Sequence record: NC_004928.1 | Origin: Escherichia phage RB69 | Strand: one strand, 5' to 3' | DNA length: 64,000 bases | Shown: positions 1 through 53,232 of the stretch, one piece after another | Layout of the letters: each line of letters starts with the position of its first letter | How positions within the stretch are numbered: position 1 is the stretch's first letter | The notes under the pieces: model-generated | Told to the model about the DNA's origin: nothing | The model's database searches: none | Seen by the model: the letters and a program-made list of their open reading frames with translations, nothing else | Program-made: the position numbers and the translations under genes

Positions 1-280
1 CGGTATTAAAGGACAAGTGACTAGTTTAAATAAACTTATAAGCGGCACTAACCCAAACGGTCAAACCATAGAAGAACGTGGTATATTGCCAACAGTTAAA
101 AACCATGACACATCAATTATGGCTTTAACTACGCGTGTTACCACTTTAGAAACCGACCTTGCTGCAGCAGAAGCAGAAATTCAGGCCCTTAAAGAGGCTG
201 GATATATCGAAGATGCTCCTTCAGACGGTAAATTCTATGTTCGTAAAGATGGTGCTTGGGTTGAACTTCCTACAGCTTAA
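1..280 (+). CDS. wac: Fibritin (whisker), C-terminal end; 5' part lies outside the window
   Basis: ORF 17..280 ends with a foldon-like sequence (GYIEDAPSDGKFYVRKDGAWVELPTA); position immediately upstream of gene 13 as in T4. Confidence 0.85.
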   Translation, partial: GIKGQVTSLNKLISGTNPNGQTIEERGILPTVKNHDTSIMALTTRVTTLETDLAAAEAEIQALKEAGYIEDAPSDGKFYVRKDGAWVELPTA

Positions 281-312: not shown

Positions 313-1239
313 ATGTCAGGTTATAATGCACAAAACCCTAAAGAATTAAAGGATGTAATATTACGTCGTTTAGGCGCTCCTATTGTAAATGTTGAATTAA
401 CTACAGACCAAATTTATGATTGTATTTCCAGAGCATTAGAACTTTATGGCGAATACCATTTTGACGGGTTGAATAAAGGTTTCCATGTATTTTTTGTTGA
501 TGACGAAGAAAAATACCGTCACGGCGTATTTGATATGCGTGGTTCTAATGTATTTGCTGTAACAAGAATTATAAGAACAAACGTTGGCTCTATTACTTCA
601 ATGGACGGTAATGCAACTTATCCTTGGTTCACTGATTTCCTTTTAGGAATGGCCGGTGTTTCTGGTGGTATGGGTAGTAATTGTGGTAAATTCTACGGTC
701 CGAACGCTTTTGGTGCCGACCTCGGGTATTATTCTCAATTAGTATCTTATATGGGTATGCTTCAAGATATGATTGCTCCTCTTCCGGATTTTTGGTTTAA
801 CTCTGCAAACGAGCAATTAAAAGTAATGGGTAACTTTAGACAGAAAGATGTCATTATTGTTGAATCATACGTTCGTTCTTATATTGAGACCCATAAGATG
901 GTAGGAAATACAGTAGGTTATGGGCAGGTCGGTCCTCGTGATTCATGGTCTATTTCTGAGCGGTACGACAACCCGGACCATAATTTGGTCGGACGACGAG
1001 TTGGTGAAGATCCTGCAACTAAACAAGGCGCATATAACAACCGCTGGGTTAAAGATTATGCGTCTGCATTAGCTAAAGAGCTTAATGGACAAATTCTTGC
1101 TAAACATCAAGGTATGATGTTACCAGGCGGTGTCACTGTTGATGGTGTTCGATTAATCGAAGAAGCTCGATTAGAGAAAGAAGCTTTACGAGAAGAGTTA
1201 TATTTACTAGACCCTCCTGCAGGTATTTTGGTAGGTTAA
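313..1239 (+). CDS. 13: Neck protein gp13
   Basis: 308 aa ORF; N-terminus [24 protein letters not shown] matches recalled T4 gp13; synteny. Confidence 0.9.
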
Positions 1240-1240
1240 T

Positions 1241-2005
1241 ATGGCGACTTATGATAAAAATCTTTTCGCCAAACTAGAAAATCGTGGCGGGTATTCTCAG
1301 ACAAATGAGACCGAAATCCTCAATCCATTTGTCAATTTTAATAACTATGAGAATAGTCAGACATTAGCTGATGTTCTAGTGGCAGAAAGCATACAAATGC
1401 GTGGTATTGAATGTTTTTATGTTCCACGTGAATATGTTGCTGTGGATCTTATCTTTGGTGAGGACCTTAAAAATAAATTTACTAAAGCATGGAAATTTGC
1501 TGCGTATCTGAACTCTTTTGAAGGTTATGAAGGAGCGAAATCGTTCTTCAGCAACTTCGGAATGCAAGTTCAAGATGAAGTTACATTATCTATTAACCCA
1601 GGTCTTTTCAAACACCAGGTCAACAATCAAGAGCCTAAGGAAGGTGATTTAATATACTTCCCAATGGACAACAGTTTGTTTGAGATTAACTGGGTTGAAC
1701 CATACGACCCATTCTATCAAGTAGGTAAAAATGCGATTCGTAAAATTACTGCAGGCAAGTTTATTTACTCTGGCGAAGAAATCAATCCGGTGCTTCAGAA
1801 AAATGAAGGTATCAATATACCTGAATTTAGTGACTTGGAACTTAACCCTGTTAGAAATCTTGACGGTATCCATGACATTAATATCGATGAATATTCTGAA
1901 GTTGAGCAAATCAATTCAGAGGCAAGTGAATACGTTGAACCATATGTAGTAGTTAACAACCGCGGTAGACAAAATTCACCATTTGACGATGGGTTTATGA
2001 ATTAA
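1241..2005 (+). CDS. 14: Neck protein gp14
   Basis: 254 aa ORF, size and position as T4 gp14. Confidence 0.88.
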
Positions 2006-13209: not shown

Positions 13210-13233
13210 TCTTAATTGATTAAATCTTATTTT

Positions 13234-13258
13234 GGGAGACTTCGGTCTCCCATTTTTG
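13234..13258 (+). terminator. Rho-independent terminator after gene 23 (GGGAGAC-UUCG-GUCUCCC plus U-run)
   Basis: Perfect 7-bp stem, ttcg loop, then atttttgg. Confidence 0.8.
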
Positions 13259-28925: not shown

Positions 28926-28950
28926 AAAAAGGGAGACAACGTCTCCCTTT
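28926..28950. terminator. Bidirectional rho-independent terminator (aaaaa-GGGAGAC-aac-GUCUCCC-ttt) between gene 54 and the alt-side genes
   Basis: Read directly. Confidence 0.75.
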
Positions 28951-36134: not shown

Positions 36135-36157
36135 CAAAAGGGAGACCGAAGTCTCCC
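36135..36157 (-). terminator. Rho-independent terminator (GGGAGAC-UUCG-GUCUCCC plus U-run) after the small basic-protein gene
   Basis: Same 18-nt hairpin as at 13234 and 50032. Confidence 0.75.
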
Positions 36158-36162
36158 TAAAA

Positions 36163-47525: not shown

Positions 47526-48386
47526 TTATACCGCCATTTTAGCTTTGATAGTTGGATGAGATTCGTAATTTTTAAGAACGAAATCAGAATGTGTCATCGT
47601 TCCAGTAACCCAGTCCATTTGGATTTTTGTAGGCCAATTCTCAAAATTACTAGGCCAATTAATTTCAAGAGAACACAACTCTTTAGGTTCACGACGAAGA
47701 ACTTCTTTGCATTGTTCTACATGATTGCTGTAGATATGCGTGTTGCCGCCTGAGAACACTAAATCACCCGGGATAAGGTTACACATCTTCGCTACAATAT
47801 GCGTCAAGGCAGCGTACGAGGCGATGTTGAACGGCAGGCCCAAGAAAACATCTACACTGCGTTGATACCATTGTAAATCAAGATGTCCATTACGCACATT
47901 AAATTGATAGAACATATGACAAGGAGGAAGAGCCATTTGGTCAATTTCGGCAGGGTTCCATGCAGAAACTATTTGTCGACGATCATTAGGAAGAGCTTTA
48001 ATACGGTCGATAGTTTTGACCAATTGGTCTACACCACCAAAATCACGCCATTGCTTACCATAAATAGGACCAAGTTCGCCGCTATGATATCCAAGGTCTT
48101 TTGCCTGATTTTCATAGTTGTCGTCCCAAATAGTTTTACCTTCAATTAGACTACCATGAGTACGAATACGCAAATCATTAACATTGGTAGAACCAGACAT
48201 GAACCACAGTAGTTCGGCAATACAAGCTTTCCATGCAAGCTTCTTGGTTGTTACTGCAGGGAATCCTTTAGTCAGGTCCCATCGCAATTTAGTTCCGAAC
48301 AGGGCAATAGTGCCTGTGCCTGTACGGTCGTCTGTTTCGTAGCCATTTTCTAGGATATCATTAATCAGGTATTGGTATTGTTTCAT
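47526..48386 (-). CDS. td: Thymidylate synthase (uninterrupted, no intron)
   Basis: 286 aa continuous ORF, same length as spliced T4 TS; active-site region PPCH present. Confidence 0.95.
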   Translation of the reverse strand: MKQYQYLINDILENGYETDDRTGTGTIALFGTKLRWDLTKGFPAVTTKKLAWKACIAELLWFMSGSTNVNDLRIRTHGSLIEGKTIWDDNYENQAKDLGYHSGELGPIYGKQWRDFGGVDQLVKTIDRIKALPNDRRQIVSAWNPAEIDQMALPPCHMFYQFNVRNGHLDLQWYQRSVDVFLGLPFNIASYAALTHIVAKMCNLIPGDLVFSGGNTHIYSNHVEQCKEVLRREPKELCSLEINWPSNFENWPTKIQMDWVTGTMTHSDFVLKNYESHPTIKAKMAV

Positions 48387-48970
48387 TTATACACGCTCTC
48401 AGTAATTTCGGTGAGTTCATCGATTCTGTAGTAATGAGATTCTACCATAGAACGTTGAAGCATAATATCTTGGACGAAATCTTTATCAAGTTGAACATCG
48501 GAATTAACACGACATTTCTTAATGATTTTAGTCATCACGATTTCATCGGCATAAGGCAGTGCTTGTTTTAATAATGCAGGACCACCAATAACCGAGACAT
48601 CAACATGTTCAGTAGAAAGTTTAAACGGTACGTCGGTTGAAGGGCTAAACAGGTTAATTTCACCACCCATTACCAAGGTAATAAATTCTGCTTGGGTGAT
48701 ATAGAACCGTGCAAGTTCATCAGTTTTAGTCCTAGGCAGTTTTCTGGCCATATCAGTGACAACCATATGAGTACGATCTGGTAGTAGACGAGGTAATGAT
48801 GCAAAAGTCTTAGCACCCATAACCATTACAGTGTTTTTAGTGCGAGCAACAAAGTTACTCATATCTTGTTTGATATGCTTCCATGGAAGTCCATCACCTA
48901 ATCCAAAAGCATATTCCAGTTTATCATCAACTGTTTTAGACGGTGCGCATGCGAATACTAATTTAAGCAT
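48383..48970 (-). CDS. frd: Dihydrofolate reductase
   Basis: 195 aa; alignable with recalled T4 DHFR; 4-nt overlap with td. Confidence 0.9.
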   Translation of the reverse strand: MLKLVFACAPSKTVDDKLEYAFGLGDGLPWKHIKQDMSNFVARTKNTVMVMGAKTFASLPRLLPDRTHMVVTDMARKLPRTKTDELARFYITQAEFITLVMGGEINLFSPSTDVPFKLSTEHVDVSVIGGPALLKQALPYADEIVMTKIIKKCRVNSDVQLDKDFVQDIMLQRSMVESHYYRIDELTEITESVYK

Positions 48971-48973
48971 TTT

Positions 48974-49222
48974 TTATTTCCTCAGATTTTTCTTAATAAC
49001 TTTCCAATCAGCTTTGAACATTTCAACGTCGGAGTGGTGAATCCAGAATCCTGCGCTTTCACCGTCTTCGTAGAGTGGACATCCATCACATTCTTCGTTC
49101 CAACCCATTTCACGTAAAGCTTCTTCAGCTTGTTCAAGGAGTTCAGCGTCTTTACCGACGATGTTGAAGTACCATTTACCTCTAACTTCTGAATCTTTGA
49201 TGCTCTGGCGTTGCAATCTCAT
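48974..49222 (-). CDS. Hypothetical protein (82 aa; frd.1-like)
   Basis: ORF. Confidence 0.5.
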   Translation of the reverse strand: MRLQRQSIKDSEVRGKWYFNIVGKDAELLEQAEEALREMGWNEECDGCPLYEDGESAGFWIHHSDVEMFKADWKVIKKNLRK

Positions 49223-49247
49223 TTTATTCTCCTCTTCACTTTTATTT

Positions 49248-49286
49248 GATAGGGCTACTATAAAATAGCCCTATCTTGTTATAAAC
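49248..49286 (-). promoter_or_regulatory. Putative early promoter (GTTTAT, 17-18 nt, TATAGT) with the -10 inside a perfect 10-bp inverted repeat (GATAGGGCTA/TAGCCCTATC); PeSL-like
   Basis: Read on reverse complement. Confidence 0.45.
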
Positions 49287-49678
49287 TACTTTTTAAAAGT
49301 TTTTTGCAAAAGTTTGATGATTTCGTCGACGTTGGTTTCATCTACGATACAATGGATTTTTGTTACACCTAAAGTTATACCTTCGTTAGTAGGTTGAGGC
49401 TTTACTAAATCTACCTCAGTAAAGTATTTGAACTCATCATAATAAATCTCAAAATAAGTTTCAATTTCACCACCGGCAGAACATACAGTACCATCTTCCA
49501 TAGTTACACTTACTACGTTTGACGTATCGCTATCATAATCAGGTTCCATTCCGTTTACAACAAAACTAGGCCCGTGGAGTTCAATCAATTTTAACATCTT
49601 AGCGTTACTGTGTGGTGCTTCTTGAACAAAGTCGTCTTTAAATAAAGGGTTAATGATATAAGATTTTCCAATTTCCAT
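49286..49678 (-). CDS. Hypothetical protein (130 aa; frd.2-like)
   Basis: ORF 49286..49777; SD GAGGAAA before the ATG at 49678 (MEIGKSY...), avoiding overlap with the upstream gene. Confidence 0.5.
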   Translation of the reverse strand: MEIGKSYIINPLFKDDFVQEAPHSNAKMLKLIELHGPSFVVNGMEPDYDSDTSNVVSVTMEDGTVCSAGGEIETYFEIYYDEFKYFTEVDLVKPQPTNEGITLGVTKIHCIVDETNVDEIIKLLQKTFKK

Positions 49679-49688
49679 TTTGATTTCC

Positions 49689-49940
49689 TCATTTGTTGAT
49701 GTGTTGTAATAAAGATTCTGCAAACGTCTCATATGATTCCAGGTGTTCTTCTTTAATGCGAACTGCATGATTATCACCCGAAGAATAGAACATCTGTACG
49801 ATAAGAGCTTCGTAATCAGACGAAATACATGCTACGTTTTCCGGCTTCAGGCATTCATTGTATGTCGCAACTGGGTCAGTGAAAGCTGCAACGTTTTTGC
49901 TACCGCAGTAATCCATACTTCTTTGAATAATAAAAATCAT
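49689..49940 (-). CDS. Hypothetical protein (83 aa; frd.3-like)
   Basis: ORF. Confidence 0.5.
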   Translation of the reverse strand: MIFIIQRSMDYCGSKNVAAFTDPVATYNECLKPENVACISSDYEALIVQMFYSSGDNHAVRIKEEHLESYETFAESLLQHINK

Positions 49941-49970
49941 TTTATTTTCCTCTCATTTGTTGATAAGTCT

Positions 49971-49999
49971 ATAGTATCATGTTTAAAGGAAAAGTAAAC
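49971..49999 (-). promoter_or_regulatory. Early promoter (GTTTAC, 17 nt, TACTAT) upstream of the frd.3-like gene
   Basis: Read on reverse complement. Confidence 0.5.
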
Positions 50000-50025
50000 A
50001 ACTTTTTTTGGCAATTTACAGATAC

Positions 50026-50049
50026 TCAAAAGGGAGACCGAAGTCTCCC
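50026..50049 (-). terminator. Rho-independent terminator downstream of gene 32 (GGGAGAC-UUCG-GUCUCCC plus U-run)
   Basis: Third identical copy of the 18-nt hairpin. Confidence 0.75.
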
Positions 50050-50056
50050 TAATTTA

Positions 50057-50956
50057 TTATAGACCAGCTAACAGGTCATCGAGGTCGCCATCGTCAGAAG
50101 ACGAGGAACTCATGAAGTCATCTTCAGTTTTTGCAGAACTAAAGGCTTCCATGTCTTTATCAAAATCGTCGAGGTCAGAAGCAACTTTATCTGCAACAGA
50201 AGCTGCTGCGGCTGCTGCACCACCCAGAGCGGCAGTACCAAGAACTTGATTAAATTTAGTATTCAATTCTTCAAACGATTTGAACTTATCTTTAGAAGTC
50301 ATTTCAGAAAGGTCAACCATTTGTTCGAACAATTCTTTCTGGAAAGATTCATCATCAATGTTTGGAATCGCAGATTGATTCAGGAATTTAGATTCGTCAT
50401 AGTTACTGAAACCAGAAACCTGTTTAACTTTCAGCACAAAGTTAGCACCTTCCCATGGACAAGTTACATCAACAGGAGTTTCACCCATTTCAGTATCAAC
50501 TGCAATCATTGCATTGATTTTGTCCCAAATCTTTTTACCAAAACGGTATTTGAATACCTTACCTTCATTATCTGGAGCTTGTGGGTCTTTAACAACCAGA
50601 ATATTAGCCCAATAAGAAGTTTTACGTTTCAGTTGAGAATATTCAGTTTTGTTGGTATTGTACAGGTCATTTTTACTAATGTACTGACATACAGGACAAG
50701 AGTCATAATCGCCGTGTGTAGATGAACAGGTTTCAATATACCATTTGCCATTTTTCTTGAACCCGTGGTTAACAAGAATTGCAAACGGAAGTGCGTCATC
50801 TGTTTTTGCCGGCAGGAAACGAATTACCGCTTGACCATTACCGGATGCATCGAGTTTCAGCTTCCATTCACCTTTATCTTCTGAAGAGAAACCTTTGTTA
50901 CCATTCAGTTTAGCCATCTGAGCTGCGAGGTCTGCGGTACTTTTACGTTTAAACAT
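50057..50956 (-). CDS. 32: Single-stranded DNA-binding protein gp32
   Basis: 299 aa; N-terminal [23 protein letters not shown] and acidic C-terminus match recalled T4 gp32. Confidence 0.95.
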
Positions 50957-51043
50957 TATATTTACCTTTATTTAGATTATTTAATTTATTTACAGTTGGT
51001 TGCTACGACACTTATACCTCGTAGCTGGTATGATTTATTTATA
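50957..51043 (-). promoter_or_regulatory. Gene 32 leader: late promoter TATAAATA (51036-51043), stem-loop, and A/U-rich unstructured region before the SD (autoregulatory operator-like)
   Basis: Minus-strand tttTATAAATAaatc, inverted repeat GCTACGAGG...GTCGTAGC, then a long AU-rich tract. Confidence 0.55.
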
Positions 51044-51072
51044 AAGTAATTTTAACACAGATAAAATAAAGC

Positions 51073-51726
51073 TTAATACTTACATGATTTTATTGTTTCT
51101 ATGAACAATTTCTTAGCAGCATTTACATCGATTTGAAGTATTTTTCGATATGCCTTTAATTTGGTAGAATAATTTTGCCAGACTAAATTGTCAGTAAGTT
51201 CGTCATGCTTATCTATAATATTCAAGAATGAATCCAACAACAAGAAGGTTTCAAACGAAATTATATTGCTTTGTAGCAATTTAAATATGTAGCTCGACTG
51301 AACTTTATTATTATAATCAAATATCTCTTGAAGCGCACTAACTTCCACTTTCTTACTGAAATAGTAGATGTTACGTACATCTTCAGCAAACGTCTCCTTG
51401 GCTTGTTTGAGACGTCCAATATATTCCCTATAGAAAACTAATGCATCAGCGTCTGATATCTCACCAATCCATGCATCTTGGTTAGCAACTAAGTTACTGA
51501 TGAATATCAAAGTGAGTTCCTTTAACTTATATTTCTCTGCTAGTTTCTCAAAGAAATATTTATCTCGGCGTTTTTGATATGCATTATCCGAAACACGCAT
51601 GCACCAGTTATATTTGATTACGTCATACCGACCATTAAAATGTTGTTTGCACATCAAGTATAGTTTGTATACCGATTTTCCATTAATATAACGTTCTCCG
51701 TCGGGAGGCATGCGTATTTTAATCAT
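51073..51726 (-). CDS. 59: Helicase loader gp59
   Basis: 217 aa, same length and position as T4 gp59. Confidence 0.9.
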   Translation of the reverse strand: MIKIRMPPDGERYINGKSVYKLYLMCKQHFNGRYDVIKYNWCMRVSDNAYQKRRDKYFFEKLAEKYKLKELTLIFISNLVANQDAWIGEISDADALVFYREYIGRLKQAKETFAEDVRNIYYFSKKVEVSALQEIFDYNNKVQSSYIFKLLQSNIISFETFLLLDSFLNIIDKHDELTDNLVWQNYSTKLKAYRKILQIDVNAAKKLFIETIKSCKY

Positions 51727-52061
51727 AATAAGAAATCTAACGTATTAGTTTTTTCACCACGAGCAACTGATGGGCGAAGCATGTTTTCGTCAATTGCTTC
51801 GCTTGTAATTTTTTCAACAATTCCTGTAGGAATAAATTTAGCAAATTGTGTTTCTGGAATAGAATTTTCTTCCAAGAAAGCAGTTGTTGCTTCTAAATAA
51901 GACATACCAAATTGTTCAACCATGGATTCGATAATGAATCCGTTTTCTTGACGGTCAAGCAATTTAGCGATATCATCTTTATCATGTTTTACTGCTAATT
52001 CTTGTTCAGATAAACCGGTCTCATCAACCGGTTTAATATCACTTAGTGAAAACTGTGTCAT
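51723..52061 (-). CDS. 33: Late transcription co-activator gp33
   Basis: 112 aa, same length as T4 gp33; synteny. Confidence 0.9.
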   Translation of the reverse strand: MTQFSLSDIKPVDETGLSEQELAVKHDKDDIAKLLDRQENGFIIESMVEQFGMSYLEATTAFLEENSIPETQFAKFIPTGIVEKITSEAIDENMLRPSVARGEKTNTLDFLL

Positions 52062-52308
52062 AAAGCTCGACTACCTCTTCGTTTTCAGCTTCAAATTGGT
52101 CACGAGCATCTTTATGATAAAGAGCTAACAAACGATTAAACATTTTTCCATCAACGCCAAGCTCTTCTTTAGCACGAGTACGAATGTCTTTAATCAGTTC
52201 ATTATAACCAGAAATTTTAAGTTTGTTATCGGAAGCTTCCTTGACTAGTTTAGCCAGTTCTTCACCATGCACATCTTGATTAAATTCAACTGCTTCTTTC
52301 TTAGCCAT
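52039..52308 (-). CDS. dsbA: dsDNA-binding protein DsbA
   Basis: ORF 52039..52326; SD GAGGTAA precedes the internal ATG (MAKKEAVEF...), giving 89 aa as in T4. Confidence 0.85.
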   Translation of the reverse strand: MAKKEAVEFNQDVHGEELAKLVKEASDNKLKISGYNELIKDIRTRAKEELGVDGKMFNRLLALYHKDARDQFEAENEEVVELYDTVFTK

Positions 52309-52359
52309 GTTTACCTCAGAATTCATTAATTACACTTGTTAATTTAGAAAGACCGGATT

Positions 52360-53232
52360 TTACAAGTATGAATAAATCTTGCCTTTAGGTTGTGGTTGAT
52401 ATGAGTTATAATACTCTATAATGGTTGAAGCAATATTATCAGGGATATAATCAAAATCAATGAGAACCAAATTTTCTTGGTACCGTTTATATTCTTCTGC
52501 ACTTAATAATACTTCAGCTTGAGAACGATCATTGGCAAGTGCTTCAATGATCGTTGTTTTCATGCTTGGAGTTCGTTCGCCTTCGACTCGAGTAAACCAG
52601 AAATCACCACGAACTCGAACAGACGCAACACCATCTTTACGGTCGCCTTTAAGAATTTTAGTCATGCAATCAATTTCGGCAGAACCATTCTTAATTTTAA
52701 CCCATTTTTTCTGCGGTGGCGACCACTGTTTAACGTTAGGGTATTTGTGTAATTGTGTAAAGTCACCATCTGATGCAACAATACACACCTTATGACCAGC
52801 TAATGACAAATATTTAGTTAATACGCCGATATGGTCATCCGCTTCGTATTTGTCAATATCCATTACAACGTATGGCATATATTTCTTAATCTCATCAACG
52901 ACTTGATGAAGTGCAGTAAAATATCCTTCCCAATCCCACTTTGAAGCTTCACGATCAGTTTTACGATTTTTCTTGTAGTAGTAAGCAAAGTCGCGTCGCC
53001 AATACCCAGAAGTAGCGTTATCCATGCACAATACAAATTTTGTATAACCTTGCTTACGGAACATCACTACGTTTTTACGAATTGAATTCAAGACTACATG
53101 ACGAACCATCGGAACGGTAATTTTATCACCATCTTCAAAGTTGTTTAATGCAGCTGCCAATGCAATGTTACTAAAGTCTGCAAGCGCAATACCTTCTTTG
53201 TAATCTTCATCCAACATCATTTCTAAATCCAT
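52360..53232 (-). CDS. rnh: RNase H (5'-3' exonuclease), C-terminus apparently truncated by a 3' frameshift
   Basis: 290 aa; N-terminus MDLEMMLDEDYKEGI matches recalled T4 RNase H; ends KIYSYL-stop while a shifted frame continues VKSGLSKLTSVINEF-stop. Confidence 0.9.
   Translation of the reverse strand: MDLEMMLDEDYKEGIALADFSNIALAAALNNFEDGDKITVPMVRHVVLNSIRKNVVMFRKQGYTKFVLCMDNATSGYWRRDFAYYYKKNRKTDREASKWDWEGYFTALHQVVDEIKKYMPYVVMDIDKYEADDHIGVLTKYLSLAGHKVCIVASDGDFTQLHKYPNVKQWSPPQKKWVKIKNGSAEIDCMTKILKGDRKDGVASVRVRGDFWFTRVEGERTPSMKTTIIEALANDRSQAEVLLSAEEYKRYQENLVLIDFDYIPDNIASTIIEYYNSYQPQPKGKIYSYL

Follow-up and report, generated by a model that had tools for sequence, protein, structure and literature searches.

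The leader of gene 32 in Escherichia phage RB69, contained in a 64,000-nucleotide (nt) stretch of sequence record NC_004928.1 that we refer to as the window, is almost certainly an autogenous translational operator, composed of an RNA pseudoknot and a long A/U-rich tract, that is bound by the product of the gene itself, the single-stranded DNA (ssDNA)-binding protein gp32. A first-pass annotation of positions 50957..51043, which correspond exactly to nucleotides -1 to -87 relative to the gene 32 AUG, had noted a stem-loop, an A/U-rich unstructured tract and a late promoter in front of the Shine-Dalgarno sequence, and had likened them to the site at which gp32 represses its own mRNA. Each of these components is present, and repression, structure and footprints have been published for this RNA (PMC535899). 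The stem-loop is real, but rather than standing alone as a simple hairpin it forms stem 2 of an H-type pseudoknot, at -75 to -46, homologous to the pseudoknots of phages T4 and T2. The RB69 gene 32 operator has been known since 2004, when probing, footprinting and repression of this RNA were all reported, and the element in the window does not differ from the published sequence.

The element extends from -1 to -75, directly upstream of and on the same strand as the gene 32 coding sequence (minus strand, 50057..50956; 299 amino acids (aa), AUG at 50956..50954), as defined by the open reading frame (ORF) list and the annotation of GenBank AY301284.1. All features of the region are on this strand; on the plus strand, no ORF of at least 40 aa in the ORF list spans the leader. 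The leader reads, in order, ...UUAAGCUUUAUUUUAUCUGUGUUAAAAUUACUU-UAUAAAUA-AAUC-AUACC-A-GCUACGA-GGUAU-AAGUG-UCGUAGC-AACCAACUGUAAAUAAAUUAAAUAAUCUAAAUAAAGGUAAAUAUA-AUG. Within it, GCUACGA (51025..51019) and UCGUAGC (51008..51002) form a perfect 7-bp hairpin with a 10-nt loop, which is present in both the minimum free energy (MFE) and the centroid folds, has a free energy of -9.9 kcal/mol alone and leaves its arms with an unpaired probability of 0.002. The first five bases of the hairpin loop, GGUAU (51014..51018), abut the 5' arm of the hairpin and form the 3' arm of a second stem whose 5' arm, AUACC (51027..51031), starts one base upstream of the hairpin; this stem alone has a free energy of -4.2 kcal/mol. 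The resulting H-type layout, identified by a geometry scan, consists of a 5-bp stem 1, a loop 1 of a single A (51026), a 7-bp stem 2 (arms at 51019..51025 and 51002..51008), a 0-nt junction and a 5-nt loop 2, AAGUG (51009..51013), all five bases of which are identical to those of T4. Because no base intervenes between stem 1 and stem 2, the two stems could stack coaxially.

Both stems are kept in 8 distinct gene 32 leaders from five genera. Leaders were gathered from annotated phage genomes and from IMG/VR, where about 30 Tevenvirinae-like gp32 loci were found and the other 50 were distant relatives whose gp32 is 37-45% identical. A scan restricted to the RB69 geometry found the same succession of stem 1, loop 1 A, stem 2, stem 1', loop 2 and stem 2', with differing stem sequences, in T4 (UGCC-A-GCUAUGA-GGUA-AAGUG-UCAUAGC), in T2-type phages such as HY03 (UGACC-A-GCUAUGA-GGUCA-UACAUCG-UCAUAGC), in Klebsiella phage Marfa and F48/MY02 (GUCC-A-GGUGCAA-GGAC-...-UUGCAUC or UUGCACC), in Serratia phage CHI14 and its relatives (AUGCC-A-GGUGUGA-GGCAU-UAUG-UCACAUC), in the IMG/VR locus L018 (stem 2 GAUGUGA/UCACAUC) and in Erwinia phage Cronus (UACC-A-GAUGCAA-GGUA-AUG-UUGCAUC). 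A raw MAFFT alignment misaligned stem 1, introducing gaps that destroyed its register; the alignment used instead consists of segments brought to equal length by filling loop 2 with N. Among the 8 distinct leaders, 95.8% of the pair cells hold standard pairs; sliding the 3' partners by 1-3 columns lowers this to 25-46%. Both sides change in 7 of the 12 pairs, and the covariation score of 0.622 compares with 0.240 in shuffles, none of 500 of which reached 0.622. Stem 2 is 100% paired and has four covarying positions. The inner four pairs of stem 1 form in all 8 leaders (25-38% when slid) and include two compensatory positions (UA<->GC and AU<->GC/UA/GU), the outermost pair forms in 4 of 8 lineages, and the single A of loop 1 is invariant (8/8). 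The hairpin is predicted, and both stems covary. From these sequences, a pseudoknot is predicted in the leaders of Mosig-, Tequatro-, Marfa-, Winkler- and Roskildevirus; many other lineages lack it yet retain an A-rich leader.

Homology to the T4 operator, a comparison proposed in the first-pass annotation, is evident from the alignment of the RB69 operator (75 nt) with that of T4 (67 nt), in which 60 of 77 columns (78%) are identical; 56 of 78 aligned columns are identical to the T2 type. CCAG, AGG and an A/C-rich 3' flank are invariant in the aligned leaders, which blastn connects with one another; about 750 gene 32 leaders in INPHARED are connected by blastn to that of RB69. The T4 pseudoknot (-67 to -40) occupies the same position and shares the H-type layout, the single-A loop 1 and the AAGUG loop 2 as well as the invariant CCAG...AGG junction, the ACCAACUGU box after stem 2 and an A/U tract laid over the ribosome-binding site. 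It differs in that stem 1 consists of five Watson-Crick pairs in RB69 (AUACC/GGUAU) and of four pairs including a G-U in T4 (UGCC/GGUA), a C-G pair of RB69 stem 2 is replaced by U-A in T4, and the tract is 45 nt of UAAAU type in RB69 compared with 39 nt of UUAAA type in T4. Upstream, the RB69 pseudoknot is preceded by gene 59 and promoter boxes, whereas in T4 segG overlaps it. The 7-bp stem 2 of T2 is identical to that of T4, and the T2-type leader, like that of RB69, has gene 59 directly upstream; unlike RB69, T2 has stem 1 UGACC/GGUCA, a 7-nt loop 2 (UACAUCG, compared with 5 nt) and a TATAAATA box 17 nt rather than 4 nt upstream of the pseudoknot. The T2 pseudoknot is reported to have a single-base loop 1, as a reading of the T2-type sequence also indicates. 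Its structure, solved by nuclear magnetic resonance (NMR), comprises two coaxially stacked A-form stems (PMC3014915), and the T2/T6 pseudoknot (PDB 2TPK; Holland et al. 1999, via PMC3014915) thus resembles that of RB69 in having coaxially stackable stems. The RB69, T4 and T2 leaders are depicted next to one another in a review by Uzan and Miller (2010; PMC3014915).

The second component of the operator, the A/U-rich tract (-1 to -45; 50957..51001), contains six UAAA and one UUAAA and runs from the pseudoknot through the Shine-Dalgarno sequence up to the AUG, thereby covering the ribosome-binding site. At 84% A+T (58% A), it is matched in A+T content by only 0.08% of the 45-nt stretches of the window, and its mean predicted unpaired probability is 0.69. 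Chemical and enzymatic probing agrees with the unstructured character that had been claimed for it: A(-1) to A(-45) is unstructured because it is hypersensitive to dimethyl sulfate (DMS) and diethyl pyrocarbonate (DEPC), and it is insensitive to RNase V1, to which the pseudoknot segment is sensitive (PMC535899). We compared tract length across the loci of HY03 (L083), T4 (L082), LNA2 (L093) and ST0 (L094) and the loci L004 and L005. Among pseudoknot-bearing relatives the tract ranges from 33 to 55 nt, and within Mosigvirus the pseudoknot is invariant while the neighbouring tract varies in length. In Tequatrovirus tracts, the count of TTAA ranges from 3 to 6, i.e. the copy number of the UUAAA-type repeat varies, and the Mosigvirus LNA2 carries a 10-nt tract duplication, AAUCUAAAUA. 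The sequences thus suggest that the tract behaves like a length-tolerant lattice.

The regulatory role of this leader was established by Borjac-Natour, Petrov and Karam (2004; Virol J 1:4), who cloned RB69 gene 32 with its leader (PMC535899). Deletion of pseudoknot elements, or missense changes in gp32, raised synthesis about 4-fold in vivo, and purified RB69 gp32 repressed translation of its own mRNA in vitro (PMC535899). The footprint of RB69 gp32 is strong from U(-14) to G(-61) and weak from U(-2) to G(-9), and differs from that of T4 gp32, which at low concentration protects only C(-42) to G(-61) of the RB69 RNA; each protein nevertheless represses either mRNA (PMC535899). All ten nucleotides named in that paper (A-1, U-2, U-8, G-9, G-10, U-14, U-20, A-21, C-42 and G-61) match the window; G(-61), C(-42) and U(-20), for instance, correspond to g51017, c50998 and t50976, respectively. 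It has therefore been shown by others, for the RB69 RNA, that binding of gp32 from the pseudoknot to the Shine-Dalgarno region blocks translation (PMC535899).

The gene 32 product matches the Pfam family PF08804 (gp32; E 2.3e-64) and the RB69 and T4 gp32 chains of PDB (8gme, 2a1k, 2atq and 1gpc) with E values down to 3.5e-170, and it is near-identical to the solved RB69 gp32 core, 2a1k. Its translation contains KRKST at residues 3-7 (MFKRKST...), the Zn ligands H64, C77, C87 and C90, and a C-terminal tail rich in D, E and S, so that the parts required of a repressor that binds nucleic acid cooperatively (KRKST, Zn-binding residues and acidic C-terminus) are all kept. The roles of these motifs are established T4 gp32 biochemistry. 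In the mechanism that these features and the published work suggest, gp32 prefers ssDNA, which would outcompete the mRNA, and free gp32 would bind the leader only once ssDNA is saturated. The pseudoknot, by analogy with T4, would then serve as the nucleation site, from which gp32 would spread cooperatively in the 5' to 3' direction over the A/U tract by means of its N-terminal KRKST (the spreading, too, is drawn from work on T4), cover the ribosome-binding site and block binding of the 30S subunit. Since repression would begin only at ssDNA saturation, synthesis of gp32 would track the amount of ssDNA in the infected cell.

The entire operator lies in the 116-nt intercistronic spacer (51072..50957) between gene 59 and gene 32, which also contains promoter sequences. 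The late promoter recognized in the first-pass annotation is borne out by a T4-type late box, TATAAATA, at 51043..51036. The window has 19 copies of this octamer where 6.7 are expected, and none of 100 shuffles contained as many. Most of the other copies are 17-34 nt upstream of large ORFs, whereas the gene 32 copy is 79 nt upstream, the operator accounting for the extra length. In T4, late promoters have an 8-bp TATA box that precedes the start by about one helical turn (PMC2988020). In RB69, 4 nt separate the box from stem 1, which predicts late starts at about 51031-51029, and we infer from this spacing that the late start is at the 5' edge of stem 1, with the late promoter abutting the pseudoknot. 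The late box also abuts stem 1 in CHI14 (5 nt; L017) and Cronus (4 nt; L024) and is 17-22 nt away in T2-type phages and Marfa. In T4, RNase E cuts the message at -71 (PMC3014915), and counting along the sequence places the start of the T4 pseudoknot (-67) 4 nt past this cut, which mirrors the late start at the edge of the RB69 pseudoknot. We infer that, owing to the late promoter, and in T4 to the RNase E cut, the stable message carries the pseudoknot at its extreme 5' end. Farther upstream (51049..51076) is a candidate MotA-dependent middle promoter, with UUAAGCUUUA at 51076..51067, a 12-nt spacer and a -10 sequence TAAAAT at 51054..51049; it matches, with one mismatch, the published consensus (a/t)3TGCTTtA, 12 +/- 1 bp, TAtaaT (PMC2988021). 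It overlaps the gene 59 stop codon. The candidate box and -10 are kept in Mosigvirus relatives with a spacer that varies, and T2-type leaders have TGCTTA, 12 nt and TATAAT.

The first-pass annotation pictured a plain stem-loop, i.e. stem 2 alone, in front of the A/U tract, and one could suppose that stem 1 does not form and that gp32 recognizes the hairpin. Nearest-neighbour folding, which is unable to predict pseudoknots, returns only the hairpin, and stem 1 is short (5 pairs) and weak when alone, with an outermost pair that forms in only half of the lineages. We nevertheless consider this improbable: the inner four pairs of stem 1 are formed and compensated across all 8 leaders and lose their pairing when slid, the geometry, with its single-A loop 1 and 0-nt junction, is fixed across genera, the T2 homologue is a pseudoknot with coaxial stems by NMR (PMC3014915), and in RB69 the segment is sensitive to RNase V1 and deletion of pseudoknot elements derepresses synthesis (PMC535899). 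A somewhat better case can be made that the principal task of the pseudoknot is mRNA stability, the structure furnishing a folded 5' end, which would shield the unusually long-lived gene 32 mRNA from decay that depends on the 5' end, and a processing boundary, while repression is exerted mainly through the A/U tract. This would fit the distances of 4, 5 and 4 nt that separate the late box from stem 1 in RB69, CHI14 and Cronus, respectively, the T4 RNase E cut 4 nt before the pseudoknot, the stability of gene 32 mRNA, which exceeds that of every other T4 message (PMC3014915), and the many pseudoknot-less lineages that keep an A-rich leader. Such a role, however, is compatible with, and does not exclude, that of an operator; deletion of pseudoknot elements raises rather than lowers gp32 synthesis, and gp32 footprints cover the 3' half of the pseudoknot (PMC535899). 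The RB69 transcript starts, moreover, are deduced from promoter position. As a replacement for repression we therefore regard stability as unlikely; the folded 5' end likely serves stability in addition to, rather than instead of, the operator function.

Several observations weigh against the assignment of a pseudoknot operator or limit what the RB69 sequence can contribute to it. Perfect 7-bp hairpins with at least four G-C pairs are common in the RB69 genome (36 overlapping matches, representing about 20 loci, in the window, against 5.5 in shuffles), many of them being terminators, so that the leader hairpin alone is only modestly unusual. The MFE of the 133-nt leader is ordinary relative to shuffles (z = -0.40); this value is uninformative, since structure is expected in only a minor part of the leader and the pseudoknot escapes scoring. 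In a permissive scan of both strands of the window, allowing one G-U per stem and variable loops, pseudoknot-like layouts of at least 12 pairs occur about once per 8 kb per strand; the leader is the only one of these without a G-U pair. Because such layouts are frequent, the single sequence is suggestive rather than decisive, and is not statistically compelling for the structure. The covariation alignment, whose register was set by hand with N-padding of loop 2, leans for that reason towards the structure, and comprises 8 distinct rows from related phages. A late start at U51030 or A51029 would reduce stem 1 to 4 or 3 pairs, respectively. Rfam gives no match, though it has no family for such an element: the whole window yielded no Rfam match at gathering score (and no tRNA gene), 49500..52500 contains no relevant family at E <= 10, and the gene 32 pseudoknot operator appears to be without a model in Rfam 15. 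Finally, protein binding to the RB69 leader rests on the literature and not on our computation, which yields the pseudoknot geometry, the covariation in five genera, the homology to T4 and T2 and the extreme composition of the tract.

The frequency of such hairpins and pseudoknot-like layouts in the genome, together with the leader z score, might be taken to mean that the repeat is a functionless accident of an A/T-rich spacer. We give this next to no credence, as it would leave unexplained the compensatory substitutions in five genera, the published functional data (PMC535899) and the invariance of the pseudoknot in Mosigvirus while the adjacent tract changes length; conservation with compensatory changes across genera indicates that the hairpin is more than chance. 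We likewise considered the hairpin as an intrinsic terminator of gene 59, from whose stop it is separated by 48 nt and to which role its G+C content (47%, richer than its surroundings) might be suited. It was rejected as such, since 51002 is followed by AACCAACUGUAAAU rather than by a U run; gene 59 points in the same direction as gene 32, promoter boxes intervene between its stop and the hairpin, and a terminator scan made no minus-strand call in 49900..51900. Termination here is accordingly very improbable. The autogenous operator, with the pseudoknot as one of its two components, is the reading that we retain.

Operators of related logic are known. The gene 43 (DNA polymerase) operator of T4 and RB69 is likewise a site near the ribosome-binding site at which a replication protein represses its own mRNA (PMC3014915), but it is a simple hairpin with a specific loop, and involves neither a pseudoknot nor cooperative spreading. 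Escherichia coli rpsO, encoding S15, offers another pseudoknot translational operator bound by its own product (PMC3014915); its sequence is unrelated, and S15 traps the ribosome rather than excluding it. In phage M13, gp5 acting on gene 2 mRNA is, like gp32, an ssDNA-binding protein that functions as a translational repressor (PMC535899); unlike gp32, it targets the mRNA of another gene and needs no pseudoknot.

Beyond the five genera, the Yersinia phage fHe-Yen9-01 (Tegunavirus; L028, about 1385..1457) has a stem 2 GGUGUAG/CUACAUC ending at -43, and the Acinetobacter phage DLP2 (Lazarusvirus; L098, about 106..160) has a stem 2 GGUGUAC/GUACAUC ending at -40, each combined with an unrelated 8-bp stem 1 (ACAAUGAA/UUCAUUGU and CUCUUAUA/UAUAAGAG, respectively), a 5-nt loop 1 and a 4-nt junction. 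Tegunavirus and Lazarusvirus may thus carry a larger variant of the pseudoknot. The relaxed scan that detects these layouts has a background of about one match per 4 kb, and owing to this high background the case is tentative and rests on position, shared geometry and stem 2 homology. A metagenome scan with the pattern CCAGN5AGGN{10,20}ACCAACTGT returned at least 120 stretches, and among the matches listed there was no gene 32 leader; these matches are attributed to chance because only two among those listed had a stem-2-like complement. In Klebsiella phage Potts1 (Marfavirus; L226), a 214-aa ORF annotated as a homing endonuclease (941..1585) is inserted between genes 59 and 32 and ends just before the pseudoknot, at the same site as segG of T4 (L082, 1..417). 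The relatives F48, MY02 and Marfa are without this ORF, which is weakly similar to SegG (20% identity, pairwise E 3e-5); a Pfam search of the endonuclease-like ORFs upstream of gene 32 in Potts1 and T4 gave no matches.

The leaders have in common a further element, the box AACUGU, which in RB69 is at -41 to -36 (50992..50997), directly 3' of the pseudoknot. Our observations on it cover this site and the loci L007, L011, L012, L015, L021, L085, L088, L099 and L103. The 80-nt stretches preceding gene 32 in 24 representative loci, 1920 nt in total, contain 37 copies of ACTGT (0.019 per nt). This is an enrichment of about 18-fold, the background frequency in the RB69 window and elsewhere in the loci being about 0.001 per nt; one or more copies fall between -64 and -22 in 20 of the 24 loci. 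The base before ACTGT is A in 33 of 33 instances, giving the consensus (A/U)nAAAACUGU(U/A)AA. One copy of the box is located just 3' of the pseudoknot in RB69, T4, T2-type phages and DLP2, and Cronus has two, whereas leaders without a pseudoknot (L007, L011, L012, STML-198, L021/KLB31 and Kosakonia 305) have three or four. In several pseudoknot-less lineages with 3-4 copies, namely the loci identified as Gelderlandvirus and Kanagawavirus and the IMG/VR loci L007, L011 and L012, the copies are 10-19 nt apart. Three of the copies in pseudoknot-less lineages overlap the final 16 codons of gene 59, each in a different reading frame (QL-F, TV, NC), which argues for selection on the nucleotides. The enrichment does not extend to distant gp32 leaders from marine and other environmental contigs (proteins 37-45% identical), which have 1 copy of ACTGT in 3740 nt. 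As a general motif of RB69, AACUGUWAA was rejected, its 3 copies in the window being close to the 2.6 expected.

PMC535899 and PMC3014915 mention only UUAAA/UAAA repeats and no AACUGU box, and a full-text literature search, outside of which the older subscription literature falls, returned two unrelated papers and nothing on ACUGU with gene 32. A tentative suggestion from these sequences, which we regard as possible but by no means probable, is that AACUGU(U/A)AA, and not the pseudoknot, is the most conserved primary-sequence feature of these leaders and serves gp32, or some other factor, as a hitherto undescribed determinant of specificity or nucleation, which may substitute for the pseudoknot.

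Positions 48364..51726 are the exact reverse complement of the whole 3363-bp GenBank entry AY301284.1 (RB69 genes 59-32-frd), at 100% identity, and the upstream neighbour, gene 59 (minus strand, 51073..51726), encodes the helicase loader, as judged by its annotation and by the Pfam domains T4_Gp59_N and T4_Gp59_C. The Shine-Dalgarno sequence of gene 32, AAGG (-12 to -9; 50965..50968), is 8 nt from the AUG and includes the G(-10) and G(-9) named in PMC535899. A weak, optional hairpin, AUCU/AGGU, spans it from A-21 to U-8 (50964..50977), and was proposed because U(-20) and G(-10) proved insensitive to probes (PMC535899). At -0.6 kcal/mol it is marginal and could sequester the Shine-Dalgarno sequence; T4 is without a counterpart. 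Downstream, 6 nt past the gene 32 stop, terminator and hairpin scans identified AGGGAGAC-UUCG-GUCUCCCU followed by UUUU (minus strand, 50031..50050), which looks like a putative terminator and/or 3' stabilizer of gene 32 mRNA. This hairpin has a C(UUCG)G tetraloop on the minus strand, and its GGGAGAC...GUCUCCC stem recurs at about 13233..13252, 28929..28949 and 36139..36158 and looks like a reused terminator or stabilizer hairpin.

The gene 32 operator shows in textbook form how a replication protein gauges its own free concentration: because gp32 prefers ssDNA to its own mRNA, and its own mRNA to other RNA, translation stops only when ssDNA is covered. For the operator itself, confirmation in the RB69 window brings no new biology; it adds a precise map of the element in the window, independent evidence for each stem from sequence comparison and a picture of the distribution of the pseudoknot among these phages. 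The AACUGU box is the sole lead that might be new. If the suggestion made for it is true, the box would explain how gp32 chooses its own mRNA in phages that were thought to be operator-less.

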